Origin: Paraspadella gotoi
Lineage: Eukaryota; Animalia; Chaetognatha
Length of the DNA stretch: 64,000 bases
Reading direction: 5' to 3'
Assembly (NCBI GenBank): GCA_051294375.1
Contig: CM119269.1
Span: forward strand, 11,700,883 to 11,764,882
This document shows, in pieces, positions 15,801-60,500 of this stretch. Each line of letters starts with the position of its first letter. Position 1 is the stretch's first letter. Made by a program: the position numbers and the translations under genes. Under the pieces are notes generated by a model that did not search any database, was not told where the DNA came from, and was given only the letters and a program-made list of their open reading frames with translations.

Positions 15801-18800
15801 TCAATGGCGTCTCGGCTCATTGTAATCCTGGTCACCACAGCCCAGACGCGCGCCAAATCGTTCCGGATTCCGAGAGGAGGACGGCGATGCGGTGATGCGA
15901 CAAACTGGCGTTCCTTCATTTTAAAAATAAGGGATGGAATGTATTGTCGAGAGTAATTCAGATATTTAGGATAGTTGATAGTTAGTTAGTTAATTAGAAG
16001 AGTAAAAAATAGACTCTCTTTAACATTCAAATCGTAAAAATATTTCATATTGCTTTTTAGATAATTTTCATAATACATAATTTGTCAGTAGGAGCGCTAG
16101 TGAAAAGTTACATACGAAAAATTCTAAGAGAACAACATACCCTCAGTGAACATTAATTTGTAAAAAAAATGTAATTTTATGTTTTCAATATCGCAGTAGG
16201 CTATTATTAGATATATAGTATATCCTTATAAAATCGAAAAAATTCAAATAGGCTTTTCTTTAATTTTGACTTCCTCGTCAAAAGTTAATAAAGAAAATAT
16301 GAATCATTTTTAAAAAATTATTTAAATTAAATGCCGTGGTTAAAAATGATAAAACTATATTTAATATTACTATGGCCAACGGGAGGATAGCCTGTGCATA
16401 CCCGGGGCGCGGGTATCTCACCAACTGGCATAGGGCTGCGGAACCCTCAGTGACCGGCCTCCTGTCCACTGGCCATTGTTTATACCGGCACGTCACATTT
16501 AAGCCAGAACCGGGATAACCAGGATTGAACCCGGGCGCACGGATGGAATGAGATGCATTTAGCCTGCTCAGCCATTAAGACGAGGGCTGAAGGAAGACAG
16601 CAGTGAGGCAGCTTTAAGTCTTGCTGCCACAGAAATCCCCCCACCAGGACTTCTCCACAGCGGGCCTCAATCCTGAAGAGAATGTCTGAGAGAAGTTTTG
16701 ATCTCATTGCCATAGTGAGAGCGAGCGGAGCGAGCGAGCGATCGAGTCTGGAGCGTTACCAGAGAAGTTAGGGCATAGGCGCTGATATGCATACCCTAAG
16801 CGATGTAAGCGTGGCGCGCATGGTGCGCAGCTGTGCGTGTTCGGATCAGTAGTGGCTCCACCACTTATGGGCAACAGGAGGATAGCCTGTGATACCCGGG
16901 GCGCGGGGGTATCTCACCAACTGCGTAGGGGCTGCGGACCCTCAGTGACGCCCCTGTCACTTGGCATGTTTATACCGGCACCGTCACATTTAAGCCTAGA
17001 ACCGGGATACCCAGGCGATTGACCGCGGGACGCCACGGATGGAATGAGATGATTTAGCCTTGCTCAGCATTGAGACGAGGCTGAGGCGGACAAGCAGTGC
17101 AGGCAGCTCTTAAGTCCTTTGCTGCCACAGGATCCCCCCCACCGACTTCTCCACAGGGGCCTCAATCCTGAGGAGATGTCTGCAGAGGAAGGTTTTGATC
17201 TCATTGCCATAGTTTGAAGCGAGCGGCGCGAGCAATATGCGAGCGAGTCTGGAGCGTTAACCAGAGAAGATAGGGGCATAGGCTGTGATATGCAATACCC
17301 TTAAGCGACGTAACAGTGGGCGCAACGGTGCGCAGCGGTTTGCGTGTTCGAGAGGTAGCTTGCTCACCACTTATGGCAACGCGAGGATAGCCTGCTGATA
17401 CCCGGGTGCGCGGGGTATCTCACCAACTGGCGTAGGCTGCGGACCCCTCAGTGACCGCCTCCTGTTCACTGCACGGTTTATACCGGCACCGTCACATTTA
17501 AGCTAGAACCGGGATACCCAGGGACTTGAACCCGGACGCACGGATGGAATGAGATGATTTTAGCCCTGCATCAGCCATTGAGACGAGGCTGAGGACGGAC
17601 AGCAGTGAGGCAGCTTTAAGTCTGCTGCCACAATTACAAAAAGTTTAATTTCAGATAAAATATAGATTTTTTAAAAATTTGATCAACTTTATGAAAGATT
17701 TTTAAAAAAAAGAGTTATATTTCATTATATCAACTTTTCATGACGAATCAAAATAATGCAAAAAAATCTTACAAAAAACTATTTTGAAACTTTTAACATT
17801 TATTGGATTAGTACTAGTATTAAAATATGGCCCCTAACTGCGTAAATTGTAAAATTATCAACGAATTTTTTTATACAGAAATGTTCATTAGTTATAATGT
17901 GTCCGTTCCTCACTTTTAGAATTTTAATTAAAGTTAAATTTGGGAATTTTTTACGACGCTTTATTGGTCAGCCCTTGATACTATGCGTAAGTAAAATGCG
18001 TAGAAACTGGCATTTAGTACATTTGTAACTAAAAAGGTATATAAAAAGCCAAATTTTAATTAGTACCGGTATTCATTTTATTAAAGTATAAAGTAAGAGA
18101 ACTGACTGTCGAATTTTGCAAATACATTTGCTTTCGCGTCAAGCTTGCTCACTTACACGAAAAATGAAATGTTAACAGTATTGTATAAATTAGTATAAAA
18201 TTGAAGAAATTGAATATTACCTTTTAAAATAAAATTCCTTTACCGTTCCAACGTTGTCTAAACAAGCGAGACCCACCCTACAGTTCCAATCGCCGCACAA
18301 CGAGAATTTGAAACATCGTCCATTTTCCGAAAAACGTAGAGACTATGAAAAAAGAGAAGCGCTGGTTTAATTAACTACGTACATAATATCATCTAAAATT
18401 TATAATTTTTACACTACTTTATTAAGTTTATAAATTTTGTTTAGATTGAAGTGTTATCTGTAACACTGTGAGAATGAGTTGCAACGAGACCTCTTACAAT
18501 AATCTTCCTCGGTCCTCTTACTTTGTCTTACTATGAGGTCTGGGTAACACGACAGCTAAATAATCATGCTAACAAAAAATTTTAAATAACAAATAAGTAG
18601 CTGTCAAAATATTATGTGAAAGATTGGTTAATAAATTGGAATTATAGATTTATTGATAAGTTGCATAGATTTTATTTCATTCATTTATTTATTCTTCAAT
18701 TATTATATCTAATTACTTTAATGACTCGATCAATCCGATCGGTGATTGATTCAATTTTGATGGTGAACATGGAAAACGAGTGATTGTTTTATCTTCTCAA

Positions 18801-20701: not shown

Positions 20702-23700
20702 CCTGCTCTCTCTCTCCAAACCCTGAATGTTAGGCAGGAGCAGGACAAGAGCTTCTTCTTATCAAAAGACGCCTTCTTCAAGTAGGCGAGCGCCCTGCAC
20801 GGCGCTCCTCGGACGTCTCGTAGGTATGACGACGGCGCCGCTATTCGTAATAGATCTTGCGATCGAGAGACCATTGTTTTCTGAAAGAGAGAGGGAAAGG
20901 GGGAAGAAAGAGAAGAATAAGAAAAGAGCAGAGGGAAAGGGGGAGAAGGAAAATGAGAAAAGGGAAAAGGAAAGAAGAGAAAAGAGAGAGGGAAGGAGGA
21001 AGGAAAATGGGAAAAGGGAAAAAAAAGAAAGCAGGAAAAGAAAAGGGAAGGTGGGAGAGAAGGAAAATGGAAAAGGGAAAAGGGAAGAAGAGAAAGAGAG
21101 AGGGAAAAGGGGGAGAAGGAAAAAGAGAGGAAAAGGGGGAAAGGAGAAGGAGAAGAAAAAGAAAAGGGAAGGGGAAGAAGGGGAAATGGAAAAAGGGAAA
21201 AGAGAAGAAAGGAAAAGAAAGAGGGAAGGGGGAGAAGGAAAATGAATAGGAAAAGAGAAGAAGAGAAAAGAGAGAGGGAAGAGGGGGAGAAGGAAAATGG
21301 GAAAGGGAAAAGGGAGAAGAGAAAAGAGAGAGGGAAAGGGGGAGAAGGAAAAAGAGAAAAGGGAGGAAAAGAGAAAGAGAGAAAAAGAGAGAGGGAAGGG
21401 GAGAAGAAAAATGAGAAAAGGAAAAGAGAAGAAGAGAAAGAGAGAAGGGAAGGGGGGAAATAAAGATGGGAAGAAGGGAAAAGACAGGAAAAGAAAGAGA
21501 GAGGAAGGGGAAAAGAAAAATTGAAAGGGAAGAGAAGAAGAGAAAAGAATGGGAAGGAGAAGAAGGAAATGGGAAAAGGAAAAGAGAAGAAGAGAAAAGA
21601 GAGATGGAAGGGGCAAGAAGGGGGGAAATGGGAAAAGGGAAGAAAAAGAAGAGAAAGAGAGAGGGAAGGGGTGAGAAGAAAAATGAGAAAAGGGAAAAGC
21701 GAAGAAGAGAAAAGAGAGAGGGAAGGGGGGAGAAGGAAATGAGAAAAAGGGAAAAGCAGAAGAAGAGAAAAGAGAGAGGGAAGGCAGGGAGAAGGAAAAT
21801 GAGAAAAGGGCAAAAGAGAGAAAGAGAAAAGAGAGAGGAGAAGGGGGGAGATAGGAAATGGGAAAGGAAAGAGAATAAGAGAAAAGAAAGAGGAAGGGGG
21901 GGAGAAGGAAAATAGGAAAAGGGAAAAGAGAGGAAGAGAAAAGAAAGAGGGAAGGGGGAGAAGGAAAATTGGAAAAGGGAAAAGAGAAGAAGAGAAAAGA
22001 GAGAAGGGAAGGGGGAATAGGAAAATGGGAAAAAAGAAAATTGAAGAAGAGAAAAGAGAAATGGTTAAAAAAAAGAAAAATGATGAGAGGAAAAGTAAAA
22101 CGAGGCAAAGGGGAAAAGAGGCGAAAAAGGAAATGGAGAAAAGGAGAAAAGGAGAAAAGGGGAAATGGGGAAATTGGGAAAAGAGGAGAAAAAGGAAATG
22201 GAGAAAGGAAGAAAAGGGAAATGGAATAAAGGTAAAAGGAGAAAATGTATAAAAGGGAACAGGGAAATAAAAGAAATGGATAAATGGGAAAAATGGAAAA
22301 GATTAACAGGGAGAAAAGAGAAAATGTAAAAAAGGGGGCGTTCTCAAAGGTTAGTGAAATAATTGTTACGCAAGAGAGAAAAGTTGGTGAACTTTAAACC
22401 AGCGTCGCCCTTTTTTTGATTATTGGTCGTCAAGATTTAATCGTTGACGATCAAAACCGAAGTTCATTTTTAATAAAAATTGAGTTACGTCACCTTCTGC
22501 TACCAGGGTGGCATCCAGAGAGTCAAGGTCATTTTTAATAAAAATGGAGTTACGTCACCCTCTGCTACCAGGGTGGCATCCAGAGAGTCAAGGTCATTTT
22601 TAATTATAAATTAAGAATGGATTTATTCATTATTCCCAGAATACCATTATTAGCCTTGTCGTTAAGACTGAGATCATTTTAGTTTTAAATTTTCGATGAC
22701 AATAAAAGCAATAAAAATAATAGTTACAAATTGCATTATTCAGCGTTTTGCTTTAACAACTTGGGTAATAAAGAAACATTTTTTAATCGAATGTTATTTA
22801 TTTCTCGTTGATCAATTTGCTGATAAATAGAAACAGACAGACAGATCAATCGAAAATTTATTTATTGAGTAACGAATATTTATTAAAATATCTTATTCAA
22901 TCTTGACGTTGAACTTTTAAGTATCGCTTGCGTGAGAAGATTGAAGAACAGAAAATATTTTGAGAGCTACTTAATATCAGACAATGATAAATCATATTAT
23001 GTTACATAAAACAACCATTATAAAAATTCTTCATTCATTTAATGAATAAGCCATCTTGCCATATAATAATAATAATTTATGTATATGTATAGTAGGGTGG
23101 AATGATGAAAAGATTGAGCGATGGAACAATGTTTTTTTGCTGCCTTTGTATATGTAATAAAAAAAAACTAAGCCCTTTTTTAAAAAAAATTTCATAACAG
23201 TATCATTAATTACATTTTTTTTATAGTAATATCCTTATAAAATCATAAATTTTAAAATTGAAGAGACAGTAATTATTGATATGTGTTAATGACAGAACCG
23301 TTCAATATAAGCAGTCCCTGAGCTTCGGATTAGGCTGTAACACCGAGATACAGGCGGGTTAAGCGCCCCGTCCCTCTTAACTGCTAGGCGGCCACCGGGC
23401 TTTGGGTTGGGAGGCGAATGACTTGCCTCCGGCACCAATGGCCGCTGATGAACGGTTGGTGGAATTTAGTCCACCATAAAATCATATTTTTTTTAATTTT
23501 AAGAACAGTTTCGGATTCGCCGGAAAAAACTGAAAAACTTTTGTGAAATACATTATATTTTTAGGTTAAAGCTGCGAAAAATTACCAAAACGTTTCATCA
23601 TATAATAGTGTTTACTACATATCATAAAAAAGTGAAGAATTTGACCTTTTTTCCATTTTTGACGCTGAAGTCATTGAAATTTTTAATAACATATTTTATA

Positions 23701-28820: not shown

Positions 28821-31800
28821 CCTCTCTTTCACCAACCAATCGATTCACATTCCTCTCTTTTCACCATTCACAATTCAATTCACAATTCTTATCCAAGTCA
28901 CGCAACGCCTTCCGTCCGGACAAGCTCTGCCTCCACACGATGTACTTCTGCGACAACCACACGGGCCTCTACGGCTACGAGTTCTTCCGCTACAAGGCCT
29001 GGCACATGATGTCCGTCTTGAAGGCCTACGCCGAGGGGGAGCCCTTCGTTTCCGGCGGAGACGCTGACTTAGCCGAGAAGTTGAGGGAAGTCGCCGAGGA
29101 GCTCAGCCGGGCGGCGGCGATGATCGAAAATCCCGCGCTCGACCGGATCAAGTGGGTTTCTTTTTGTTGCTGCGGCGGCTCCCGCTGTTGAGGATGCTGC
29201 GCTGATTTTTATGCTGCTGATAATGATTTTTCCCCTGCTGCCGCTGGATCATGATGACGATAATGATGTTTGTAATAATATGCTGATATCATTCTCATTT
29301 TCATTCTCAATCCCATTCTCATTCTCAATTTTCATTCTTATTCCTATTTTTTCCCCCATTCTCATTCTTTATCTTATTCCCTCACTTATTTTCATTCCCA
29401 TTCTAATTCTCATTCTCAGTCCTGTTTTTTTATTCCTAATTCTCCTTCTCATTCTTCCAGATTCTATCACGAGGAGAACAAAGAATGCACGACTCGACAT
29501 CCGGAAAAAGACGCAGACTCGACTCTAAACATCAACAGTAACAACAGCAATCTCTTCGGTAACATCAGCTTCACTCGGGAGCTGGAGAGATTAGATCATC
29601 CCGACATGGAGGAACACTACGGTCTGCGATAAAAACTGTCTCGTTCTCTATCTCTCTCTTTGATAGAAAGATGTGAATTGAAACTGTTTATATATATATC
29701 ATCCTTTGTTTGTATATTATCCGTTCATTTTTCTTTCGCGTGTGAATTTTTTTCTGCTTTGTTTTGAGAGCGTTCATTATTACAAATACATGTATATTTA
29801 TGACGTCGAGTCTACTAAATCAATTAATATTTAGACTTGTTAACTCCGTTATAATCAAGAGAATTTTCTAAAAGAGCTGAACTTTTAGCCTTAATTTAAA
29901 ATTAAGTTAGTTTTTAGATTTGGTTAGGGATCAAGGGTTAGAGAATAAGGTTTAGAGATTAGGGGATAAGGTTAGAGATTAGGAGATAAAGTTAGAGATT
30001 AGGAGATAAGGTTAGAGATTAGGGGCCATTGGTGCCGGAGGCAAGTCATTCGCCTCCCAACCCAAAGGTCCGGGTTTCTAGCCCAGTGGCCGCCTAGCAT
30101 GGTGTTACAGCCTGATCCGAAGCTCAGGGACTGCTTATATTGAACGGTTCTGTCATTAACACTTATAAATAATTACTGTCTCTTCATTGGTGAGCCCGAC
30201 TCTCGAACACAACAGCAACAACAACACTTTCAGGCGACATGCCTCAACTTGGCGATGCACTTTCCGCTAAAAACACATCAGGCGACATGCCTCAACTTGG
30301 TGATGCACTTTCCACCAACAACAACAATTCACTGAAGAGACGCAACAGACTTCTCTCTACAAGTGGGGGGGATGTATGGTGGACTAAAATCCACCAACCG
30401 TTCATCAGCGGCCATTGGTGCTGAAGGCAAGTCATTTGCCTCCAAACCCAAAGGTCCGGGGTTCTAGCCCGGTGGCCGCCTAGCAGTTAAGAGGGACGGG
30501 GTGCTTAACCCGCCTGTAACATGGTGTTACAGCCTGATCCAAAGCTCAGGGACTGCTTATATTGAACGGTTCTGTCATTAACACTTATCAATAATTACTG
30601 TCTCTTCAGGGTTTAGATTTATGAATTAGTTTATGGTTAAGGATCAGAGTTGGGAATTAGACTAAACATTTGATAAGAGATTTAAAAATTTAAGATGAGT
30701 ATTAATAAAGTTAAAATTAAGTTCGCGGATTAAGAACAGAAACGGGGCGCTTCCGGAAAAGAGTGCCGGTATAGTTAAACGAAGAAAACCCGAGCCTCAC
30801 CCTGACCCTAACCTCACCTGGAGCCAGAATCCCGGCGAGAATTCTCTCGTACTGAAACTGATTAAGATCGACGGGTAAGTTGCTGACGAGGAGAGAGATT
30901 TCCGATCCGTGAGGATCAAGTTTTTGGTGAAGGTAATGACGAGTGAGACGATAGAGAGAGAGTGATTCACGTCGAGCTCGTTGGAGAAGTTTCAAAGGTT
31001 GGTCGGTGCTGATGGCGGGTGAGGAAGAAGGGTAAGGTCATCTCGGCCAGTCCCGGATTAACACAGATATTTTTGTCCCGAGTGTTGAGAACCCGCCTGA
31101 GTTTCTTCTTTAACAACACTCCGCCTGACCCCTTTTTACAATGACGTTTACCAGAACTGAGAGCCACCTTTCTCTAGAAATGAATCTGATGAGCCTCTCA
31201 AAGGGATTTACTCACAAAGCCTCACCGCCATCTCTATGGATAAGGTGTTAAGTGGATTGAAGATTTTTTGTGCCCCCTCAGCAGCAATGGAACGGGTCCT
31301 GGGCTTGGAACCATGCTTGAGGGTTTGCCACCTCCCCTAAGGCGGTTTACGTCCGTCCTCAGGCTTCCCGCAGGGTAGATACCAGGTTGGGATTAAACCC
31401 GGTAACTAGTGGTCATGAGCTGATGGTATTACTCAATGAGCCACCGGGTAACAACTGAAGGTGTCATGCTTATAAGCGGGGTGAACTTGGCGTTATGCTC
31501 GAACTTCCTGTTGATCCTTCTCTCTGCATTTTTACCCTTTGGTCCGGAATGCCCTTACAATGACTCATTCATCAGTGAGTCCTTTTAAAGTGAAACTCCC
31601 TCCTCAGTCCTCACCCCGTGAGCCGTCTCTCAGTGATCCCCTTGTCCAGCAGAACCTCGACCAGCTCGAACTTTCTCGGGTCTTCGCCTTCCATGTTGAA
31701 TTTGGTGAGAGCGGTTTCGATGACTTCGGCCGCCGTCGTTTCAGAAGTGATGATCACTTTCTTGTAGTTGAAACCGAATGAGAGTCTGAAGTATTTATTG

Positions 31801-35628: not shown

Positions 35629-38393
35629 TCCGAATCACCTGATAAGCATTCCGAGGTCCAGCAATTCTTTTTGCAATGCCCGCATTTAGAGTTCACCGGG
35701 AGATTCCCTTCTCTCCAGTGATGATAATACACGGTGGACAGCTATTTTCAGAATTCGGGTTTGGAATAAAAACTGACCCTAACGCGTCGATGATTATTAT
35801 TAAGGATTCAACTTACCAAATCTCGATGCGGTGAGTAGGTAGCACATTCTTTGCAATCGCTGACTGCAAATTCGCGACAATCCAAGTGAACCACATATTC
35901 ACAAACTGAGAAATTATAGCAAATTAGCTAGAAAATTAGCATCACACTTAGATTAAGGGAGCAATAAAAACGTCCCATTTAGGCTTAAATACAGAAGTAA
36001 ATTAATCTTTTAAGTTTAAAGATTAGTTAAGAATTGGAGAAAAAAATTTAGTGAAAGATAAAAGGGATGAAAAAAAGAAATGAGGCGGTCACGGAAAATA
36101 GCTCCTAAATTTCTTACTGTCACAACTGAGCGAGTGAGAATCGTCGAGTCTTCTTCTGCAAACGCAACAAAATTTTTTCTTGAGGCTTTGAGGTTCAGAC
36201 CAACAGTGAGCGACGGGGTTCTGAGTTGATAAAACGTTAATTTGACTTAATTAATAATTATTGAAACGTTGAAATATATTAATCATACCTTAATTTTATT
36301 TACAGCCATGCTCGTACAGAGAGATGTAATGGATTTGACGCATTTGTCGTGAGCAACGAAATTGCAAACTGATGACGCCAAAGTTTAATTCAAATGGTTA
36401 AGTTAAAATTACCAATGAAAAGATTAAAACTTGTATATGAACACATAAAGGCTAATCGGTCTCACCTTGGCATAGATACCCCGTTTGGAAATATCCCCAG
36501 AGAACTTCGCTGCAGTGATGACAGTGAGCCATTTTGTGGAATGTTTTCTTGGTGAAGCTGTGACCAGTGACGGCTTTATCTTCGTCTTCGTCGTCACTGC
36601 ACATTTAGAGAAATATTTAGTGTACTAGTTTTTCAGTTTTTATATTTGCACACTTTGCATATAATCGTTTGAAATATCGTGATTTTCACAATATATTTTA
36701 AAAATTGAAAACCAAATTTTCATATTTTTCAAAATAGCAAGCAAAGACGATAGAAAAATACAGTTTTAACGACGTGGAAAAGTGCTACATATTTTTATAA
36801 CCCAAATATAAGGAAATAATAAACAAGCAACAGCCGGGTTGCCTGTGATGCGCATTGGGATGGGGCATCTCACTGTTGGCTTTGGGGTCATCCGACCCTC
36901 AGTGACGCCTCCTGTCACTGGCGCGGTTACCCTAGGACGGTCTCGCTTTGCCAACGCAGAGGAAAGTCGTTAGGACTGTGGATGGTAAGCAACGCCTGGA
37001 ATGGTGCGTTCCCCCTCTGAGCCAATTGTATTGAACGATAGTGGACATGAGGCAGTGTGAATATACCGCCACACAACGTCAATTGAGAATCTGGCATGTA
37101 AAGTAACAAGTCACGTCAAAATCAAACACATATATCTTTCCGCGTTTAAAATGGTTCACATCTACTTGTCCATTGTGTCCAATGTCCAGTCCTCCTTTTT
37201 GACGAAATGCCCAATTAAGGACATAAAGCGACTTCGCTCCTTCCCCCCCCCCAGCCGCCTGCACTGCAATCCTCAAGTGATCAACCTCCCTCTACCTGCA
37301 ATAAGAGACGGTGGCGTTGATCTCGGAGTGAGAGCCGTGACTCGGCGGGTGACTCGGACCGTGACTTGGGGTGAGGCTGTAAGGGTGAGGCGCCTCGAAG
37401 GAAAGCGACGCAGCGGAGAGGGTCGGCGTCGGAGTCCGGAGAAAAAGCTCCGACGCGGACGGAGAGACGGACAAGAGAGAGTCGGAGATGCAACTCGACG
37501 ACAGCGCGTCCGAGCGGACGAATCTGGAATTATTGGACAAAATTGGACGAATAATTGTTGATTCATTGTTCATTGTTCATTCATTCAATAAATAAACCAT
37601 AAAATTGGTAGAAACAATATCAAAACTTTCCATTCTTTCCGAAAATAGCTGACAAGCAATCAAGTCCCTTTCACAGTTTATTAGCTTCATGAAGTTTGAA
37701 CTTTATACAACGAATATAACAATTAGCCATTATTTCAATGAACATTGAACAATTTATCTTGCCTCCTGACTTTGGCTAGGCTTATGGTGGGTTTTAACCT
37801 TAAAAGGCCTCCATCCTTTTTACAAATTACATAGCATGACCCTGCAAATTTTCATTCAAGACTTTTCAAATGTAAAAAAACAAATGCTTACAATCTGGTT
37901 CCTCTTTGGTTGACGCTCTGCAGGCGAAGAAGTCAGTTGAATAAAGAAAAAAAAGAAAAAAAAGAAATTAAATATTTTTCAAAAATTGTTATCGATAAAT
38001 GGTCTTAAAAATTTTTCAAAATAGTATATGCTTTTATTTGAAAAATATAATTCATTATTGTTACTGTATTGCACCTTTGTTTTGTTGCCATCTTCGTCTT
38101 CGATGTCGTTTCCGAAAACGTCCGCCGAAGCGCCCCATTCTTGAAGAAATAATACAAAACAATATTAATATAATTACTAGGTAATAGGATTCGGAGTTCG
38201 TACGGCTTTTTAAGTAAATAATTAATTCATCGAAGAAATAAGTAACCAAAACAAGATGACAAGGTTTAAAAAGATGTTCATTGTCCAATGTCCAATGTCC
38301 AATGTCCTGACCTGAATGGGGATCGAGAATTAAGTCCGGTTCCCTGGTCGCGCTTTTCGATCGCCCCTTGTCCTTTGAGCCGCCAGAGGGCAT
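8816..38393 (-). CDS. DGKQ: Diacylglycerol kinase theta-like (3 C1 domains, RA, RRM-like, catalytic domain); 3' accessory exons not in window
   Basis: GT-AG exons 38393-38312, 38139-38075, 37917-37892, 37523-37296, 36596-36466 ([17 protein letters not shown]), 36368-36289, 36220-36118, ~35905-35816, ~35742-35639 (HHWREGNLP), ~34053-33883, ~33471-33283, ~32994-32898, ~32749-32649, ~32299-32174, ~31785-31615 (RA domain), 31008-30818, 13065-12908 (noisy duplicate ~20880-20722), ~12616-12463 ([11 protein letters not shown]), ~11939-11840 ([12 protein letters not shown]), ~10796-10676 ([10 protein letters not shown]), ~9941-9802, ~8912-8816 (VMNNY..GIDAD). Confidence 0.9.
9030..9840. repeat. ~60-65 bp minisatellite derived from a DGK exon end plus donor site (duplicate 14240-14955)
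   Basis: Unit CACTCACATGAGTCGAGTCCTCCTTTTCATTCGACGAGTCAGCGATGGTCACC(CT)n, roughly a dozen copies. Confidence 0.9.
10973..11563. mobile_element. hAT-like MITE (~600 bp); copies at ~16089-17962, ~49010-49619 and 59020-59637
   Basis: TIR TA(A/G)(G/A)GCGTAGT. 8-bp TSD TTGGTCAG here and GTAATTAT at 59 kb. Confidence 0.8.
16371..17632 (-). mobile_element. Family C tandem mini-LTR element (3 LTRs, 2 interiors)
   Basis: LTRs ~16371-16631, 16866-17129, 17372-17632. Flanking direct repeat ATTAC. tRNA-Trp-like PBS and GGGGGGATCC PPT. Absent at the homologous site (~11240) of the duplicated segment. Confidence 0.88.
16921..17000 (-). ncRNA. Type-P5 twister ribozyme candidate, family C (also 16425-16507 and ~17427-17506)
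   Basis: Consensus of three noisy copies: CTGGC TTAA ATGT GA CGG TGCCGGTA T^AA ACAT GC C AGTGAC-loop-GTCACT G AGGG TCCGCAGC CCT AC GCCAG. P2 ACAT/ATGT is perfect in the middle copy; T1 is CGG/CCG. Confidence 0.75.
20880..22320. repeat. Purine-rich degenerate tandem array (also 13066-13326)
   Basis: Almost only A/G on the + strand. It generates the spurious K/R/E and F/S/L ORFs. Confidence 0.9.
23259..23478 (-). mobile_element. Family B solo LTR inserted in a MITE (second solo LTR at ~55880-56094)
   Basis: TGAAGAGAC...CCACCATA flanked by an AAAT duplication. The empty site is seen in the sister MITE at ~34455. Confidence 0.8.
24541..29632 (+). CDS. Fe(II)/2-oxoglutarate-dependent dioxygenase-like protein, 424 aa, nested antisense in a DGK intron
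   Basis: Eight GT-AG exons 24541-24692, 25013-25128, 25456-25591, 25726-25849, 26157-26320, 28515-28671, 28898-29151, 29461-29632 join in frame (1275 nt). Contains DHWHYD (HxD), [12 protein letters not shown] (distal His) and ERVSVIMAF (2OG-binding RxS). Confidence 0.85.
30024..30608 (+). mobile_element. Family B mini-LTR element; 5' LTR truncated and with a deletion in its twister
   Basis: LTR ends TCTTCA at 30186, PBS 30188-30200, PPT ~30365-30374, 3' LTR 30375-30608 with twister at 30483-30556. Confidence 0.85.
34296..35530. mobile_element. hAT-like MITE (TAGGGTGGAG ends) hosting a Tc1/mariner derivative; sister copy 23093-23938
   Basis: Inverted ends TAGGGTGGAG/CTCCACTCTA and near-perfect 8-bp TSD TTCCGTAG/TTCAGTAG. 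Confidence 0.75.
34587..35199 (+). mobile_element. Internally deleted Tc1/mariner-superfamily transposon
   Basis: TIRs ACATCTGGCCCATAATTATT with TA flanks. ORF 34739-35047 is an HTH-type N-terminus with GAGRPRKL; no DDE domain. Confidence 0.8.
36827..37073 (-). mobile_element. Family A solo LTR with mutated twister L4 (TCGGATGA)
   Basis: Homologous to 41960-42212. Smaller family A fragments occur at ~46880-46941 and ~50045-50170. Confidence 0.8.
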
Positions 38394-39600: not shown

Positions 39601-41661
39601 GCGTTTATTGTACATGACGAAGATAAGAGAAAAGACAAAAAAGGAAAGAAAGGAAATATGATAGCAGGAACCGAGAGAAGTTATTGTACTACAATATGAT
39701 ACAAAGGAATTATGATTATACAAAAGAACGTAACCTATTTTTCTTATTATTATAACAGAAAAACTAGTAGGACGTAAACGCTGAACACTGAAGAATATTT
39801 GACAATCTTAGTATTTAACTTTACAAAGACTGACTTCAAAATAGCTCATATAAAGTTATATATTTTCCCATTACTGGTTTATATCCAGCTGGCTCGTCGG
39901 ATAAAGCTGTCACTTCGTGACCAGCGCGTCACGGGTTCAGGTCCAAGGCGGTACCTTCCGCTCGAGAATCATTAGGATCGCCAGTCATAATTTATAACAA
40001 AAAATGTTTTCCGTCGTTATTTACATTTACGGCTTCATTCACAATATACGTTATAATTTCGTATTCTATCCATAATTCACGGTATCGAAATTAAACTCCT
40101 ACGAGACTTAAACTATTTAATTCATCCTTCGCACAAGTAATCTTTAGGTTTACCGGGAAAAAACAATTTTACCCCAAAAATGAGAGGAATTGATCGGCTT
40201 CGCAGCATCGCGCCGAAAATAGTCGCGATTCCACGGATCGATTGACTCAAGGAGAAACTGGAAGAGGAAGGGAGGACGTCCGCAAGTACGACATTCAAAA
40301 ATGGCAATTAGGGAGTTTAGATACTGCGACATACATATCGCAGATCGGAAATACTGAAGACCAAACCGTAACATTACATCTTCGTCGTCAGTGTTTTCTA
40401 ATTTTTAAGTTCAAAGCCGTCGGCAGAGTTCGTGAGTGTTTGAAGTTCGTGGTTTAAGTCCGGGTTTGTCTAACGTTAATATCTTAGTTTCTTCTTCCAT
40501 TTTATAATGTGCCTAATATTTAAAACAAGTTTGAGCAAACAATGTCTGATCTACATACGATAATTAAGCGGTAATAAGCTAATCCGATGATAAATCATGG
40601 TAATTTTTCTGACTCTCAATTTGTGATTATAACAAATCATAACAGACTTCTTAATAAATCTATGAAAAAATCTATAAATCAATTGATCTATCAATCATTA
40701 CCAGTAGCTGTGCCAATACCAACTTGCATAATTAAATCAAATAGCATAATTTGGTCAATTGACATAATTTGGTCATCTGGCATAATAATTAATTGATTGA
40801 TTAATTAATTATTGATTAATTAACCAATTGTTTAATTAATTAACTAATGGATTAATTAACTGATTAATTATTTGATTAATTAATACATCTTGTATTTATA
40901 TTTAATATAAAATAAAAAGAAGCATAATCAATTAGTGAAACAGGTTTTTTGTTTTTTCCATTTAAACTCATTTCCAGCTTAATCACACACTTTCCTACCC
41001 ATATACAAAATTTTAAGTTAATCGTCCCATCCACTCATGAGTAATTGGCGTTCAAATAGTGAAAAATATTTTTTTTGTTTTTTCCATTTAAACTCTTTTC
41101 GACTAGCACGATTCTATCGAAACTTCATATCTAGCTCAATCACGCACTTTCCTATCCACAAACAAAATTTCATTCCAATCCATCCATCCAATCACAAGTA
41201 ATTGGGAGTTTTTTGCTAAGGTGGGACGGACGGACAGACGGACATCTTTTTTTTTTTGCATAATTTATCATAATTCGATATTCTGACATGATATATGTGG
41301 TTGCCCGACAATATTGAGGGGGCGGACCGACGGACCGAAAAAGTGAATTAAAAATGGCTTATTTTTACATTCGCCGACCGGGATTTTGCGGTCGGGTTTT
41401 TTTTTCGCTTTTTATGAGCGACTTATATAGAAATGTCGCTAAGCAAAAATAAAAAAAAGATACTGGTAAGGGTAGAAAAACTGTTTATTACAAATTCCTA
41501 ACCACCCCTAACCCTAACCACCCTTAATCCCTATCCAACCTTAAACCTCAATCAGCGCAAAAACGAATTGATTTGTGAAAAAAATTATTTTTACAAACTT
41601 TGAAGTTTGAAGAGAGAGAGAGAGAAAGTCTGTGAAAATATTTGTTTCACAAATCTATTCG

Positions 41662-41708: not shown

Positions 41709-41959
41709 TTTGTTTCTTTATAAAACTCGTACTTAAACACACAAATCATTTTCTACCTCAAACATAAAAATAGCAATTAAAATAAATTTAAAACAATTAT
41801 TATTTATTATAAAATTATAAAATTTGTATACTGAAAAAAAAAATAATATTATTTCGCAAAGTGAGACTCGACGCTAGAGGAAAAACAAAATTAAATGGAT
41901 TAACAAAGCAAAGGTTGGTTACGGACGTCGAATAGTAAAGTTACCCAAAAAAACAATAC

Positions 41960-42695
41960 TATGGCAACAGCCGGGTTGCCTGTGATGCCCATTTGGGATG
42001 GGCATCTCACTGTTGGCTTTGGGGCTTCCGACCCTCAGTGACGCATCCAGTCACTGGCGCGGTTACCCTAGGACGGTCTCGCTTTGCCAACGCAGAGGGA
42101 AGTCATTAGGACTGTGGATGGAACACTACGCCTGGGATGGTGTGTTCCCCCCTGAGCCAATGGATTTGGCTGAACGATGGTGGACGTGAGGCGGTGTGAA
42201 TATACCGCCACAGGATCCCCGGACCAAGACATCACTCAGGTTCCTCAAGCCTGAGAGGTGTCTGACAAGACTGTCACCATAGTGGGAGAGAGAGAGCGAG
42301 TTGTGGGGGCATAGGCGTTTATCGTAGCGTACCCCAGGGGCATAGGCGTTTGTCGTAGCGTACCCAAAGTCGGCAGGGCATAGGCGTTTGTCGTAGCGTA
42401 CCCTGAGAAGGTTGCGTGTTCGATAGTAGGGCTCACCACTTATGGCAACAGCCGGGTTGCCTGTGATGCCCATTGGGATGGGGCATCTCACTGTTGGCTT
42501 TGGGGGCTCCCGACCCTCAGTGACGCATCCAGTCACTGGCGCGGTTACCCTAGGACGGTCTCGCTTTGCCAACGCAGAGGGAAGTCATTAGGACTGTGGA
42601 TGGAACACTACGCCTGGGATGGTGTGTTCCCCCTCTGAGCAATGGATTTGGCTGACACGATGGTGGACGTGAGGCGGTGTGAATATACCGCCACA
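41960..42695 (-). mobile_element. Family A non-autonomous mini-LTR element (TRIM/retrozyme-like), complete
   Basis: LTRs 41960-42212 and 42441-42695 (sense TGTGGC...GCCATA). 4-bp TSD ATAC (41956-41959, 42696-42699). PBS TGGTGAGCCCTAC after the 5' LTR, PPT GGGGATCC before the 3' LTR, three ~28-bp internal repeats, no ORF. Confidence 0.9.
42012..42091 (-). ncRNA. Type-P5 twister ribozyme candidate, family A (second copy 42493-42573)
   Basis: Minus strand: GTTGGC AAA GCGA GA CCG TCCTAGGG T^AA CCGC GC C AGTGAC-loop-GTCACT GA GGG TCGGAAGC CCC AAA GCCAAC. P5, P2, P3, P4, T1 (CCG/CGG) and T2 (GC/GC) are all present. Confidence 0.8.
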
Positions 42696-42784
42696 ATACC
42701 TCATTAATCTTAAAACCTATAGTATCCAACTTAAACCCGCATTGTATTGTGGTCAGTTCCGCAGGGCGAGACTTCGGCGCGGCA

Positions 42785-45700
42785 ATGTCATCCGCGGGAC
42801 ATTTGTCCTTCACGGAGTCCTTTGTCCTGTCCGGGATCGCCGCCGTGGTTTCGAAGACGGCCTCCGCGCCTCTCGAGAGGGTCAAACTTCTCATCCAGAA
42901 TCAGAACGAGATGCTGAAACAGGTTTTTTAAAACCTCGATTTATACGAAGATAACTGGTTAAAAATACCTCGACTAGAAAGCTAAAACGCTACAGCCTAT
43001 AGAAGAAAAACAAACAACCGGTCATTCCAGCAGACAGAAATATTTAATAAAATTGACAAATTTTAAAAAAATCGTTTTTTCCTTCACGCTTTTACCTAAT
43101 TACAAAATTCCATCAGGGAGTCATTAACGAAAAATATAATGGAATCATAGACTGTACGAAACGCGTCGTAACGACGGAAGGTAAAAAACAAAGAAATTGG
43201 TACAACCAATAATTAAAATTATCCATTCATTTAATAAATAAGTTATCTTGCCCCTGACTTTGGACAGGCTTTGGTGGTTTAAGGCCTCCATCACTCTTAC
43301 AAGATAATGACATAGCAGGTCCCTGCAAGCTTTCAATCAAGACTCTCTTACAGTCACGTTTATTCACTCCCAGAATACCTGTCGTCCTCGGGTGAGTTAT
43401 ATGCCAAAAGTTTTTTTGATTGCAAAGAACATCTGACACAATACGGGTAGGCCTAAAAAAATAGGTTTCCACCAATCGCCATTCAAATTGATTGAACACC
43501 CTTAGCGTTACCAGCGCTTGAAGGATTTTTGGCACATAAAATATAAATGTATAAAATATGAAAGATTTTAATCTCCAACCTCATTTATCAGTTAAAAAAA
43601 TATATTAGATTAATTCATGTCAAATTTCAAGACAAAAATACATTAAGTGGCTTTACAACATCATCAGCAATCTGCTGGAGGAGGTAGAAGCCATTACATT
43701 AATGTTTATATCTTTTAAGTTGGGGGAGTAGCACAAAGTGTTTCTATATAGATTTATTCACAAATAAATATATCAATATGATTAGGGGTTTAGTTATGAA
43801 AAGAAAATTATGTTTTTAATTAAAAGTAAATGGCTTTCATAAAGAAATTTTTACCTGCAACATTTCGTCCACATCCTTCAACTTATTGGGGAAGCCTCTA
43901 CAGAGCCTGTGAAGAATGTTACTCTTAAAATAATGAAATAACATTGAACCCAGAGTGTTTGGGCAACTAATAAAGTTATTTTTGAAAGTATAATTTTTAT
44001 TTTTTTCAGATTGATAGCATATGAAGATTTAATTCAAAAATGTTTCAAAAGAAGCTCCTTTGAGAAGTTGTGGATCAATCAAGATGAAATTTATCAAACA
44101 GTTTTACCCTATCTTGCTTAACTTATTAATTCTATATTAAAAATTATAATATAATATTTGGTGTATATTTTAGTATATTATAGTTTATATTATATTATAT
44201 TATATTATTATATTATATTATATATTATATTATATTATTATTATATTATTATATTATTATATTATTAGTTTATATTATATTTTAGTTTTATACAGAAAAA
44301 ATTTTCCAGGATGTGACTACACTGATATTTTTTTTAAAAACTTATTTTATTATTTAGAGCACTTATTTGTGAATAAAACTATATAAAAACACTTTGTGCT
44401 ACTCCCCCAACTTAAAAGATATAAATATTAATATAATGGCTTCTACCTCCTCCAGCAGATTGATGATGATGTTGTAAAGCCACTTGATGTATTTTTGTCT
44501 TGAAATTTGACATGAATTAACTCCATAAATTTTTCTAACTGATAAATAAGGTTGGACAATAAAATCTTTCATATTATAGACACAGTGAATTATGATGTAA
44601 AAGGTGTGCCAAAAATCCTTCAAGCGCTGGTAGCGCTAAGGGTGTTCAATCAATTTGAGTAGCGATTAGTGGAAACCTATTTTTTTAGGCTTACCCGTTT
44701 TGTGTTAGATGTTCTTTGTGATCCAAAAAACTTTTGGCATATGACTCACCCTACTGTCTTCCCTATAAATATTTCAAAGAATGTTTCAATTGTATGAAAA
44801 GAACACTCCCTGATTAATATCATAATGATTTTATTTTGAAGTAATCTATCATTTCTGTGGGATTAGATTCTCGGAAATTAAATTTTATATTGGTTGTACC
44901 AATTTTATAAAATTCAGTTCCTTGTATTTTGATGCTGGGCGGAGTACATTATAGTATTCCTCGATCTAATACTTGTGGTAGGGCCAAACTTTGTCAATGG
45001 GGGGGTCAGAAGTTCAATTTGGGAACTTTCCCAAATGAAGCTTCATACATTTCTGAGAAAGCTTTCAATATACCAATTTTTTTTTAAATGGCTAGAAGCA
45101 CTAGTAATTATTTTTTTAATATTTATTTATAGATAGGAAATGTCAAAAAAATTTTTTGGGGAATTTTGTATTTTTAAAAGCAGATTCATATAGGTTATTA
45201 AAAGTTGTTTACACAAAGTATAATTTAAGTGGGTCAAAATTAGGAAAAACTTAAAAAAATCATCCTCATCATCATCGTCCAATAATTTTAATAGTTTTGC
45301 TATTTTTTAGTAATAAAACATCAAAATTTTAAAAAGTTGTAATTACAATTTTTGTTTAACTTTTTGAGCTCTATCAGAGTCAAATAAAAAAACTTAAAAT
45401 ATCTAAAAAAATTTTTGACATTATATAGCAATATAATAATTTTAATTAACGAATTACTCATGGTTCAGAACATTTTTGCAAAAAAATATTTTAACACAAT
45501 AACTAATACTAATAATGGATTTGTTTAATGCTGTTCCCATTAAAATTTAAATTTGGTCGGCTACCGCTACTTGTGGGAGTGGTCTTTTCATAAAATTGAA
45601 ACATTCTTTGAAATATTATCACTTCATTGATAGGGAAGCAAGGAACTCTGGGAGTGAATAAACGAGACTGTGAGAGAGTCTTGATTGAAAGCTTGCAGGG

Positions 45701-51744: not shown

Positions 51745-52931
<1,187 letters not shown>

Positions 52932-54568: not shown

Positions 54569-57500
54569 GCAATTATGCAATTGCGACGATCCTTATGCTT
54601 TTAAGATTTTTTTAACTTGCATCATTTTTTCAACTTACGTGACTTATGTTTTTTCCATTTAAACTCATTTCCACTGGCACAATTCCATCAAAACTTTATA
54701 TCTAGCTTCTTCACACACTTTCCTACCCGCTCACAAAATTTCATCTCAATCTATTATAGGTTAAAATAAGTAAAAATATTAAAGTAAATGTGACTCATAT
54801 TTTTTTTATTTAAATTCATTTCCACTCGTATGTTTCTACCGAAACTTTATATCAAGCTTCGTCACACACTTTCTTACCCACACACAAAATTTGAACTCAA
54901 TCTATCCATCCAATTATGATTAATTAGAGTATTTATTGGTTAAAATAAGTAAAAAGATTTTAGTAAATGCGACTTATGTTTTTTCCATTTAACTTCATTT
55001 CCATTCACACGATTCTATCGAAACTTTATATCCAGCTTTATCAAACACTTTCCTACCCACACACAAAATTTTATTCCAATCCAATCTGTCAATCACGAGT
55101 TATTGGAGCTTAATTGTCTAATTGATTAATTAACTGATTAATTATTTGAATTATTAATACATACTGCATATACATTTAATATAAAAGGAAAAAGAAGCAT
55201 AATCAATTAGTGAAACAGGTGTTTGTTTTTTTCCATTTAAACTCATTTTCTCTCAAACGATTCCATCGAAACTTGATTTCCTGTTCAATCACACACTTTC
55301 CTACCCACATATAAAATTCCAGGCCAATCGCCCCATCCACTCATGAGCAATTGGTGTTCAAATAGTGAAATATATTTTTTTGTTTTTTCCATTTAAACTC
55401 ATTTCCACTTGGACGATTCCATCGAAACTTTATATCCAGCTCAATCACACACTTCAAATCCATCCATCCAATCACAAGTAAGTGGTGTTTTTTGCTAAGG
55501 TGGGACGGATGGACGGACGAACATTAATTTTTTTGCATAATTTATCATAATTCGATGTTCTGACATGATATAAGTTAGTGCCCGACAATATTGAGGGGGC
55601 GGACCGACGGACCGACAAAGTGAATTATAGAATCGGGATCTGCTGATAAGCAGATCCGACTAAAAAAATATTGTGATTTATCATCTGATTAGCAGATTAC
55701 CGCTTAATTATTGTAGGCAGATCCGACATTGTTTGCTCAAACTTGTTATGATTTAATTTGGGTGTATGAAGCTAAAAATTTATATACAGCTTCTCATCAT
55801 CAATGTGCTTAAAATTTAGTCTGGACAGTTATTAAATATGTTATGTTTACATTTTATCAAAACAAACAAATTTTTTCTATGAAGAGACAGTAATTATTGT
55901 TGTGTTAGTTACAGAACCGTTCAACATAAGCAGTCCCTGAGCTTCGGATAAGAATGTAACACCGTGTTTCAAGCGGGTTAAGCGCCCGGTCGGCTACCGG
56001 GCTAGAACCCCGGACCTTTGGGTTGGGAGGCGAATGATTTGCCTCCGGCACTAATGGCCGCTGATGAACGGTTGGTAGATTTTAGTCCACCATATCTCTT
56101 TTATTTTTATATTTCTTTCTCTCTCTCTTTTCTCTTTTAAGTACATGTCTCTCTCCCTCTCTCTTTTCCCTAGTCACTGATTCTTAGGGAAAAAAACGAG
56201 TCTGCAGCTGGCTCTGCAGGGGCTTATTCTTTTTTTCTCTTTTCTCCTGCTGCTTCTGCTGCTGCCTTTTGATTTCTTTCTTATTTTTCTGGGTGCCTCT
56301 GCTGCTGGCTTCTCTCTCTCTTTTTCACTCTCTTTCTCTCTCTCTCTCTCTTTCTTTTTTTTTTCAGGGGCTGCGTCTGCTGATCAGTTTATTTTTTTCC
56401 TTTCTATTCTTTCTTTATATTTCTTTTTTTCTTTTTCTTTCTGTTTATAAATTAATTTTCTTTTCTCAAATTTGATTTTTTTTAGTATCAAAATTTGTCG
56501 TCAATCCAGATTTTTCTTATGCGATTGCGACGATCCTTATGCTTTTGAGATTTTTTTTTTTAATTAAGTACAATGTGAGACGACAACCCGCCGTTAGAAA
56601 AAAAACGTCATTTTCAAACTGGTATACTCACACCATCCCAGGCGTTGTGTTCCATCCACAGTCCTAACGAGTTCCCTCTGCATTGGCAAAGCGAGACCGT
56701 CCTAGGGTAACCGCGCCAGTTACTGGATGCGTCACTGAGGGTCGGAAGCCCCCAAAGCCAACAGTGAGATGCCCCATCCTAATGGGCATCACAGGCAACC
56801 CGGCTGTTGCCATAAGTGGTGAGTCCTACTATTGAACACGCAACCTTCTTAAGGTACACTACGACAAACGCCTATAGCCTGCAGACTTTGGGTACGCTAC
56901 AACAAAACCGCCTATGCCCCTGGAGTACGCTATGACAAACGCCTATGCCCCCACAGCTCGCGCTCTCTTTCTCCCACATGGTAAGTCTTGTCAGACACTT
57001 TTCAGGCTTGAGGAACCTGAGTGATGTATTGGCCCGGGAATCCTGTGGTGGTGTATTCTCATATCCACGATCATCCCACACCATCCCAGGCGTTGTGTTC
57101 CATCCACAGTAGGGTGAAGTAAAAGTTTGGAATCAAAATTTAGCAGTTATATTTTGAAAACTATCATATTAGTAAATATTAATCTGTAGTTTTTTTATTT
57201 TTTTTTATAAATATAGTAACCCAGTCAGCTTATTTTGTATATAATACTACCCTTATATAATGTCAAAATTTTAAAATGTTTTTTTTTAAATTCTGAGAAC
57301 AGATTCAGATTCCTCGTTAAAAATTGATGAAAGAAAATATCTTTTTTAAAAATTATTTTATTAAGTAAGTTAAAATTATAAAAAATTATATTTTTAAACC
57401 GAAAATTGAAAATCCGTATCTTAAAATATTTTTTTTATATTTTTAACCAACTTAATAAAAGAATTTTTTTTAAAAAATGATTCTTTCTTATGTTAACTTT

Positions 57501-60500
57501 TTGCAAGGAATCCAAATCCGATCTTAAAATTTAAGAATTTGGAATTTGAAATTTGAGCCTATATATATATATATATACTTAATACTATATATAAACATAG
57601 CTCACTGGTGCTTACCAATGTATACAATTAAAAAATAAATTTACCAAAGTATTTTTATTGGTTTTTATTTTTATGTTTTATGTGCTAAATTTTAATTTTT
57701 TAAAATTGTATCATTTTCACATCACTCTAATCCACAGTCCGAACGACTTCCCTCTGTTGGCAAAGCGAGACCGTCCAAGGGTAACCGCGATAGTGACTAG
57801 ATGCGTCACTAAGGGTCGGAAGCTCCCAAAGCTAACAATGGGCATCACAGGCAACCCGGTTGTTGCCATAAGATGTAAATTTAATAGTCTTATTTGATAT
57901 TCTTATATTTTAAATAGAATACATTTATTATTTATTTTTAATATTTTTTCAATTCACCAAACTCTTCTTATTTTAATAATATTATATTTTTAGTTATTTA
58001 TATTATTGTTATTATTTTTATTTTAATGTAATTTTTTTTTATTTTGATAAGCTTAGAATCTTTTTTATTTTATGTCTTATGTTATTTTCAATAATTAGGA
58101 GAGGAGCCAGTTTACTTACTTAATCCAGATTTATTGAAATAGATTATGAAATGAAAAATAATATTTTAAATAAAAAAGGTTTATATCCGTGCAGTTGTAT
58201 TTATTTATTAGATCATTGTAATTATTAAAAAAATTTTCTTAAATCTTTTTATTTAAATCCTTGATTTTGTAGTTTTTTATTTAAATTAAAAGCCCTGAAA
58301 AGTCTGAACAAATTGTGGCAAATCTAATTAACTGACAAGTGAAAACTAATAAAGCTGCTTTCCTCGGAATACAAATGTCCATATATGGATAATTAACAAT
58401 ATCAAAATTAAAAGTTTATATAAATGTTCTTTTAGTAAATATTCACAAAATTTCTATTCATTTAATAAATGGGACAGGCTATGGTGGTTGAAAGCCTCCA
58501 TCACTCTGACAAAATAATAAGATAGCAGTTCCCTGCAAGTCGTGTTCCGATAACCGTTAACTGTTAACGGTTATTAACGGTTAAAAATAATTTTAACTTA
58601 ATCGTTAATATATTTATTTTAACGGTTAAATTCGGTTAATTTTCAAGTGTGATTTTTTTCATTTTTTGGTATGAAATTTTTAAATTTAAAAAAAACTTTT
58701 TTTTTCCTGCTCTCTCTTATTCCCATCTCCCGTTCTCACCATATTTTTACCGCGCTCTCTCTTCTCCACTTTTTCCCTGCTTTTTTCCTTTATTTTTTTT
58801 TTTTTTCTATCCTAATCTCTCTCTTATTCTTTCTTCCTCTTTATTTATCTCCTATTGTTCCTTTCTTTTTCTCTCTCATTTTTCCCCTTTTTCTTTCCCC
58901 CTTTCTTTTTTCTCCTTGTTTCGCTCTTTGCTTTTACCTTTTTAATTTTTTTGCCCTTCCATGCAATATATATTCAATTTAGCTAAAAATAAATAATCCC
59001 TTGAAGAGACAGTAATTATTAAGGCGTAGTAAAATTTCTAAATTTAACTTTAATTAAGAATTCTAAAAAGTGAGGAACGAACAACATTATACTAATGAAC
59101 ATTTATGTAATAAAAAAAATTATAATAAATTTTACAATTTACGCAGTAGGCCATATTTATACTAGTACTGATAAACCAATAAATGTTAAAATTTCAAAAC
59201 AGTTTTTTCTAAGATTTTTTTGCAGATTTGGATTCGTCATAAAAAGTTGATAAAAGAAATATAACTCTTTTTGAAAAATTCCTTCATTAAGTGGGTCAAA
59301 AATTAGAAAAAGCTATATTTTAAGCTGAAAATTAACTTTTTATATATTAAATATAGTTTTTTTAATTTTTAACCCACTTAATGAAAGAATTTTTAAAAAT
59401 GATTTATATTTTCTTTTTATCAACTTTTGACGAGGAATTCAAATTCTACAATCAAAATTAAGAAAAGCCTATTTTGAATTTTTCGATTTTATAAGGATAG
59501 TACTATAATATAAATATAGCCTACTGCTAAAATTAAAAAACATAAAAATAATTTATTTTACAAATTAATGTTCATTGATGGTATGTTGTTCATAATTGAC
59601 TTTTAGAATTTTCGTATGTAACTTTCACTACGCCTTAGTAATTATTGATAAGTGTTAATGACAGAACCGTTCAAAAATAAGCAGTCCCTGAGCTTCGGAT
59701 CAGGCTGTAACACCGTGTTACAGGCGGGTTAAGCGCCCGGTCCCTCTTAACTGCCAGACGACCACCGAGCTAGAACCCCGGACCTTTGGGTTGGGAGGCG
59801 AATGTCTTGCCTCCGGCACCAATGGCCGCTGATGAACGGTTGGTGGATTTTAGTCCACCATACATCCCCCCCTCCGCTGTAGGGAGAAGTCTGTTGCGTC
59901 TCTTCAGTGAATTGTTGTTGTTGGTGGAAAGTTCGTCACCAAGTTGAGGAATGTCGCGCCTGATGTGTTGTGGGCGAAAATGCATCGCCAGGTTGAGGCA
60001 TGTCGCCCTGAAAGTGTTGTTGTTGCTGTTGTGTTCGGGAAGTCGGGCTCACCAATGAAGAGAACAGTAATTATTGTTATGTTAGTGACAAGAACGCGTT
60101 CAATATAAGCAGTCCCTGAGCTTCGGATCAGGCTGTAACACCGTGTTACAGGCGGGTTAAGCGCCCCGTCCCTCTTAACTGCCAGACGACACCACCGGGC
60201 TAGAACCCCCGACCTTTGGGTTGGGAGGCGAATGTCTTGCCTCCGGTACCAACGGCCACTGATGAACGTTGGTGGATTTTAGTCAAGCGCATACCCTTTT
60301 TACTTTTACTTTTTCTCTTTTTTTCTTTCCTTTTTTAAAACGATCAAAGAAGCAAACGAAATAAAACCAAATGAATGAAAAAAAATAATAAAAAACCAAA
60401 TAAAAAAAATTATTTTAAAAAATTAATAATAGAAGGAACAAATCTTAAAAAAGACATTAAGGCTAACTAAAACTATCCTTCTTCAATAATGATGATATAC

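Follow-up and report, generated by a model that had tools for sequence, protein, structure and literature searches.

The locus described here raises the question of whether animals possess LTR retrozymes, and whether the self-cleaving ribozyme of such an element can be a twister. Non-coding and 736 bp long, the LTR element A1 occupies positions 42695..41960 on the minus strand of a 64-kb window, the window being the whole stretch of DNA that was analysed. We consider it rather probable that A1 is an animal LTR retrozyme that uses a predicted twister.

Anatomy and copies of the element

The 5' LTR of A1 has 255 nt and TGT...ATA ends (42441..42695, minus strand) and shares 97.3% identity with the 3' LTR of 253 nt (41960..42212, minus strand). 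The identical 4 bp GTAT flank the element on both sides and represent the 5' and 3' copies of the target site duplication (TSD; 42696..42699 and 41956..41959, minus strand). A primer binding site (PBS) of the tRNA-Trp type in the form known from the CsRn1 clade, TGGTGAGCCC (42429..42438, minus strand), follows the 5' LTR after a spacer of 2 nt, and the similarity among the three families A, B and C into which the copies of the window fall runs about 15 nt beyond it. A short polypurine tract (PPT; 42213..42220, minus strand) abuts the 3' LTR; in families B and C its G-runs are longer than in A1. One stop-free frame of 152 codons exists in A1. As it matches no Pfam family and is lost in copy A3, where the longest sense frame comprises 55 codons, we regard the element as non-coding. 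These measurements bear out the original prediction, which had placed two LTRs of about 254 bp, a 4-bp TSD, a PBS and a PPT on one strand and had described the element as free of open reading frames. The internal region holds three repeats of about 31-38 nt (42307..42403, minus strand), each a predicted hairpin, which are a possible candidate for a packaging signal. At the 3' end of the LTR two strong hairpins are predicted (41960..42011, minus strand; folding z -3.84), the outline of which is common to family C.

The window contains 17 LTR pieces, eight of family A, six of family B and three of family C. The copies include solo LTRs, elements with two LTRs and a single element with three. Besides A1, family A includes the truncated element A3 (56629..57110, plus strand), whose twister core with the U at 56708 is intact, and a solo LTR (A2; 36827..37073, minus strand). 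Family B is represented by a two-LTR element with a truncated 3' LTR end (59637..60292, minus strand; predicted cuts after U 60159 and 59731) and by a second element (30018..30608, plus strand) with a damaged 5' LTR, as well as by two solo LTRs, one with identical 4-bp flanks (23259..23478, minus strand) and one with part of the twister deleted and flanks that agree at three of four positions (55879..56094, minus strand). The LTRs of this family end in TAT...TCA and show no similarity to the A or C LTRs that is detectable by blastn. The family C element has three tandem LTRs (16371..17632, minus strand). The released units would measure 482 nt in family A, 428 nt in family B and 508 and 490 nt in family C, in line with the sizes foreseen originally (482, 428 and about 500 nt).

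A local duplication (8187-12702 versus 13352-19127) harbours the family C element in one of its copies, and the other has an empty paralogous site (11225-11262). The element is flanked by a 5-bp repeat rather than by 4 bp; this repeat is seen at the filled site, and the empty paralog has 4 nt at the same place. Since the surrounding region is rich in indels, the length of the TSD is uncertain in this family.

A high genomic abundance had also been anticipated, and this agrees with the 17 pieces in the window and with DNA run X1, where among the matches listed at least 200 contigs exit the LTR 3' end into differing flanks. The summed DNA depth corresponds to more than about 1,300 LTR copies, even assuming a 31-fold over-count per base, a figure that is arithmetic on contig depth and not a true copy number.

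As to its surroundings, A1 lies antisense just upstream of a mitochondrial ADP/ATP-carrier-like exon (42765-42921) and is probably intronic. Together with the exons at 45832-46227 and 50480-50827 (all on the plus strand), the last of which has a weak Mito_carr match, this exon forms what we take to be an ADP/ATP-carrier-like gene; a homolog search with the transporter exon returned a single match. Rab39-like GTPase exons follow at 51754-52300 (plus strand). All named relatives are animal proteins, mostly Rab39, and the best of them include proteins of molluscs, a brachiopod and annelids; the host is accordingly an animal, as the original prediction had assumed. Long inverted-repeat elements resembling MITEs or foldback elements occupy 43193-45827 and 7614-8596, one being nested in another, and an HTH fragment at 34682-35047 (plus strand) with weak Pfam HTH matches is likely a relic of a Tc1/mariner-type transposase. 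Further repeats comprise a tandem array of about 70 nt and a dispersed family with a period of about 155 nt, with several copies each (9031-9851, 14244-14871; 40804-41350, 47389-48651, 54635-55666).

A predicted twister fold in each LTR

The twister numbering used here, like the A- and B-box consensus applied below, is in part general knowledge of the field. Folds with the P5 order of the twister class are predicted in the 5' LTR (42493..42573, minus strand; cut at 42547/42546) and in the 3' LTR of A1 (42012..42091, minus strand; cut at 42065/42064). A strict P5-order twister descriptor returned four sites in the window (U 42547, 42065, 56708 and 16972) and one site in 30 shuffled windows. It arrived at the same two U^A cuts in A1, and at the same 482-nt unit between them, that had been named in the original prediction. 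With a motif profile built from 11 copies, which match it by construction, 14 sites were found in the window, 12 near-complete and two partial, all of them within LTRs and on the sense strand of the element.

The catalytic core of the twister occurs in the expected order, with U^AA at the cut, G-A before pseudoknot T1, a GC/GC pseudoknot T2 and U...AGC in loop 4. All three families, dissimilar as they are, have this core equally far from the end of the LTR and exclusively in sense orientation. Pseudoknot T1 reads CGG/CCG in family A and CCG/CGG in families B and C, which amounts to a two-sided swap, and T2 is invariant across all three. Helices P2, P3, P4 and P5 are present in families A, B and C, and in the first three of these helices the sequence changes between families with the pairing kept. 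P2 has flaws, namely a C-A pair in family A and a bulge in family B, and one base of loop 4 is A in families A and B and C in family C. Of the complete P5 twister that had been claimed for each LTR, the ordered core, both pseudoknots and helices P2 to P5 are thus found, but P1 does not form a normal hairpin and P2 is imperfect. Overall, the cross-family covariation, along with a parallel in wasps described below, supports the reading of the predicted fold as a twister. Against this reading, the Rfam twister models do not recognise the motif, a negative outcome of the covariance-model check that had been set with the original prediction, and energy minimisation by itself does not produce the fold. 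In the 5' LTR of A1, position 42509 in loop 4 is unlike nearly all contigs of the family, and for this reason the A1 copy may have a weaker ribozyme than its family.

Across the DNA runs (776-2306 contigs per run), fold variants at a frequency of at least 2% were confined to six places, four in loops or the centre of P1 and two at helix ends, and no such variant affected catalytic or pseudoknot bases. The bias of these variants towards loops has a hypergeometric p of about 0.003, with the loops defined after the fact, and a young burst could explain the low variation of the fold as well. In a mutational scan of the Osa-1-4 twister, T1 and T2 were the mutation-sensitive parts and tolerated swapped pairs, P1, P2 and P4 tolerated mismatches, and P1 was dispensable (PMC5113685). 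The sensitive and tolerant parts of that ribozyme agree with the parts that are kept and relaxed in the elements studied here.

The P5 permutation would lead one to expect a closed P1 hairpin, in place of which the elements have a palindrome, a feature absent from the original prediction. In A1 the self-complementary P1 segment of 8 nt (42066..42073 and 42548-42555, minus strand) is predicted to pair between the two LTR copies. P1 measures 8 nt in family A, 6 nt in family B and 8 nt in family C, and the three sequences differ from each other, each being fully self-complementary. For family A we calculated -10.0 kcal/mol for the duplex versus +2.7 kcal/mol for the hairpin, and over all three families the values range from -8 to -11 versus +2.7 to +5.6 kcal/mol. 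Three self-complementary four-base P1 centres would arise by chance with a probability of about 0.002 if the families are taken as independent. Since P1 is self-complementary in each of the families and would not form a stable hairpin in any, its modelled pairing suggests a ribozyme formed from two copies. On the other hand, the two central bases of P1 vary more than any other core position (2-3% in run X4 and less than 1% in other runs, unphased), the variants in X4 are partly non-palindromic, and in copy A4 the palindrome is broken, all of which would also fit a plain hairpin loop. Cutting by a single copy is possible too, as P1 is dispensable in other twisters.

A likely promoter, a putative helper and a proposed circular cycle

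Upstream of the predicted twister, the 3' LTR of A1 contains a tRNA-like stretch with an A-box (42159-42149) and a B-box (42125-42116) on the minus strand (42116..42159), with equivalents in the 5' LTR, that is likely an internal promoter for Pol III and likewise has no counterpart in the original prediction. The boxes of family A have three mismatches in total, and five of 200 shuffles were equally good. Those of LTR C3 (16371-16631) have none, a result reached by none of 200 shuffles. In family B, 56 of 200 shuffles were equally good and the A-box is not significant; a 7-bp acceptor-like stem encloses the tRNA-like stretch in the 3' LTR of the second element. ARAGORN found no tRNA gene.

The presence of such a stretch in the LTR defines the Helenus/TRIMp3 class described by Kojima in 2024 (PMC10886601), and on this basis the elements of the window are, as judged from their sequence, Helenus-type TRIMs by structure. 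They share with that class a length below 1 kb, a tRNA-derived stretch per LTR and, with its animal members, 4-bp TSDs and Gypsy-type PBSs (PMC10886601). Transcription by Pol III is unvalidated for the published members too (PMC10886601). In nearly all published animal Helenus elements little sequence separates the tRNA-like stretch from the 3' end of the LTR, whereas in the window it is followed by about 150 nt, and these include the predicted twister. The main text of that paper reports no ribozyme and contains the word once, in a reference, and by eye we saw no twister in the animal entries of its Data S1. Two LTRs from Synergus wasps in the same data set (Helenus-2_SyJa-LTR and Helenus-2_SyUm-LTR), however, appear by eye to carry a type III hammerhead after the boxes, with a stem I of 7 bp, a stem II of 4 bp, a stem III of 6 bp and a loop-loop complementarity of about 12 nt. 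These two families are also the only Helenus entries that we found with a TGGTGACCCC (tRNA-Trp) PBS. Like the elements of the window they combine this PBS with a 4-bp TSD, a similar LTR size (277 nt) and the same order of tRNA-like boxes, ribozyme, about 60 nt and LTR end; they differ in the type III hammerhead and the long loop-loop complementarity. We regard the Synergus families as candidate insect LTR retrozymes and, with the hammerhead predicted by eye, as an independent case in which this layout is combined with a ribozyme of a different class.

Since a six-frame motif scan of the 64-kb window gave no trace of an autonomous helper or of gag-pol, the helper has to be deduced from the PBS, ends and TSD of the elements. 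Ty3/Gypsy elements of the CsRn1 clade such as PwRn1 and AgCR have a PBS of the form TGGTGAG/CCCCGT/A, TGT...ATA termini and 4-bp TSDs (PMC2582038). All three hallmarks (tRNA-Trp PBS, TGT...ATA/AAA ends and 4-bp TSD) are found in family A, and the PBS and the ends in family C; family B has the PBS, and one of its solo LTRs also has the TSD. We infer a CsRn1-type Gypsy as the putative helper. The Ty3-gypsy machinery that had been proposed can thereby be narrowed to one clade by PBS, TSD and termini, although no helper was found in the window itself. CsRn1-clade elements share the form of the PBS, the termini and the 4-bp TSD with the window elements and differ in being autonomous with gag-pol; the available part of their description mentions no ribozyme (PMC2582038).

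Going beyond the observed anatomy and covariation, we infer a cycle of transcription, dimer formation, cleavage, ligation and mobilisation. Transcription by Pol III would begin in the 5' LTR, at its tRNA-like stretch, and run across both LTRs and on into AT-rich flanking DNA. The P1 palindromes of the two LTRs would then pair and create two strand-swapped twister cores, at which both sites would be cut. This two-copy proposal follows the example of amphibian retrozymes, whose hammerheads act as dimers (PMC7229834), and by such pairing the cutting would depend on a two-LTR transcript, so that a circle with one ribozyme would stay stable. The released unit of 482 nt would be ligated into a circle from which a CsRn1-type Gypsy could copy with tRNA-Trp as primer. 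As this circle would include a single complete LTR along with PBS and PPT, no first strand transfer would be needed, and solo LTRs, monomers or multimers could result. Gypsy integrase would insert the copies with a 4-bp duplication. The three-LTR element of family C fits the multimer copies predicted by a circular-template model (PMC4918200), and a ribozyme-free Helenus element, LTR-11_DR, makes tandem arrays as well (PMC10886601). A bolder and more tentative extension, to which we give a little less than even credence, would be that tRNA-Trp-primed, Pol III-driven mini LTRs make up a class of animal LTR retrozymes that is widespread yet so far unrecognised and whose ribozymes are interchangeable, a twister here and a type III hammerhead in gall-associated wasps. 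In the twister version, an obligate 'double twister' with a palindromic P1 would cut a transcript only if it has two LTRs, and the circle would stay stable.

Run X9 is the only RNA run of this organism and was treated as RNA because the neighbouring exon is covered and the next intron is at zero. The summed depth of the element is high in X9. Its RNA/DNA depth ratio of 0.04-0.15, however, is the same as that of unrelated flanking repeats (0.06-0.14), compared with 16-19 for the neighbouring exon, and there is thus no sign of specific expression of the element in the X9 contigs. X9 consists of contigs, from which ends, strand and circles cannot be read, and a poly(A) library would lose circles. 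Unlike the highly structured RNAs of plant retrozymes, the predicted circles gain nothing in folding over shuffled sequences (z of -1.1, -1.9 and -0.5 with 30 shuffles each, the B and C units being a few nt off register). One X9 contig of 1998 nt and depth 214 contains the twister half of the LTR (laid on 41962-42110) within 1.6 kb of other sequence and could be a host transcript or a helper.

An active twister could also belong to a linear cycle without a circle, in which either Pol III transcripts would be trimmed by it at their 3' ends or the P1 palindrome would act as a dimerisation signal for packaging, with ordinary strand transfer in R. The lack of RNA enrichment and of circle-like stability would suit such a cycle, as would the role of palindromes in genome dimerisation of Ty1 and retroviruses. 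Oligo-T (T4) terminators amount to three runs over five elements and are absent from A1, B2 and C, which is weak evidence and would make another 3'-end signal useful. However, the LTRs are alike, so that the 5' site would also be cut and the R repeat lost, a loss that the retrozyme model avoids by circularisation (PMC4918200), and the existence of a three-LTR copy speaks against a linear cycle as well. We hold this alternative to be unlikely.

Another reading would make the elements ordinary Helenus-type TRIMs in which an inactive twister-like relic is carried along as a passenger fold, derived for example from a tRNA-headed SINE in an ancestral LTR; an insertion of a SINE has been proposed by Kojima as the origin of Helenus (PMC10886601). 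A relic would fit the poor agreement of the motif with covariance models. Contrary to what a complete P5 twister would suggest, Rfam gave no match to twister-P5, -P1 or -P3 at the gathering score in the whole 64-kb window. At E<=10 there was no twister-P5 match in three sub-regions, where a partial match to twister-P1 (14.2 bits, E 9.4) was the only one obtained, and no twister match of any kind in one B LTR and one C LTR. Moreover, P1, P2 and loop 4 depart from the canon, and as family A is young and uniform its low variation may reflect a burst rather than selection. Against a relic stands family B, which has kept all core bases and compensated pairings despite the lack of blastn-detectable similarity between its LTRs and the others, and the wasp families carry another ribozyme class at the same place. 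We therefore regard a relic as quite improbable. That an LTR rich in GC and hairpins resembles a twister by mere chance, which the low Rfam score and the minimum-energy folds (P2 and pseudoknots not reproduced, family C no better than shuffles) would allow, is very improbable indeed given the descriptor background of one site in 30 windows and an ordered core that recurs at a fixed distance from the LTR end in dissimilar families.

Relation to known retrozymes and twisters

If A1 is an LTR retrozyme with a predicted twister, its closest counterparts in function are the LTR retrozymes of plants (PMC4918200; PMC7761336). As described there, these are non-coding elements with a sense-strand ribozyme in each LTR, a PBS, a PPT and a 4-bp TSD, for which a Gypsy-type helper has been inferred and which occur as solo, monomer and multimer copies. 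Plant retrozymes, however, have a type III hammerhead, a tRNA-Met primer and units of 600-1000 nt, whereas the elements of the window have an animal host, a predicted twister, a tRNA-Trp primer, units of 430-510 nt and A/B boxes in the LTR, and their circles are only predicted and not unusually stable. The design of A1 is therefore that of a plant retrozyme in its proposed working and that of a Helenus-type TRIM in its structure, without the hammerhead and tRNA-Met.

Twisters with a weak or altered P1 have been shown to be active in an animal retroelement before, namely the T-variants of Perere-3 in Schistosoma mansoni (PMC8501958). Those have the P1 order, make a single cut and belong to an autonomous RTE LINE, which carries them at its 5' end and is described without an LTR, a PBS or the release of a unit. 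The non-LTR retrozymes of animals (PMC7229834; bioRxiv 10.64898/2026.07.22.740005) are likewise small and non-coding with paired ribozymes; the amphibian ones require dimeric ribozymes, and RtcB ligates their RNA in vitro. They differ in having type I hammerheads, tandem repeats without LTR, PBS or PPT, and a linkage to Penelope-like elements.

Reviews and the July 2026 preprint divide retrozymes into plant LTR elements with type III hammerheads and animal non-LTR elements with type I hammerheads, and the place reported for twisters in retroelements is the 5' end of non-LTR elements. The original prediction saw an undescribed class in the elements of the window. This holds insofar as we found no animal LTR retrozyme or LTR-borne twister in the open-access literature (subscription journals and Repbase lie mostly outside it), but the elements fit the named Helenus/TRIMp3 class. 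One review mentions unpublished work on type III hammerheads of insects and, given also the limited coverage of the literature, partial prior art is possible.

Should the retrozyme reading be true, the route of Gypsy parasitism from ribozyme to circle would have arisen more than once and would be indifferent to the class of ribozyme. Twisters would gain a second role in retroelements besides the trimming of LINE 5' ends, and TRIMp3/Helenus elements and retrozymes, which have been named separately, would become linked. A natural dimeric twister would further be of interest for mechanistic and engineering studies.

Candidate loci outside this organism were sought with a combined pattern of twister and Trp-type PBS, which also misses the copies of the window itself. 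The 12 loci obtained (five on viral and seven on metagenome contigs) are all attributable to chance: none has LTRs or the twister pairings, and most lie amid long open reading frames. Contigs and joints of runs X9, X4 and X5 contain further related families of the same organism in which P3 is compensated, P4 is fully paired and the bases of loop 4 differ. Finally, run X10 from a second organism includes a piece of 276 nt that is 98% like A1 (five differences, depth 6), together with a low-depth piece resembling family C; these could stem from contamination, prey or transfer.
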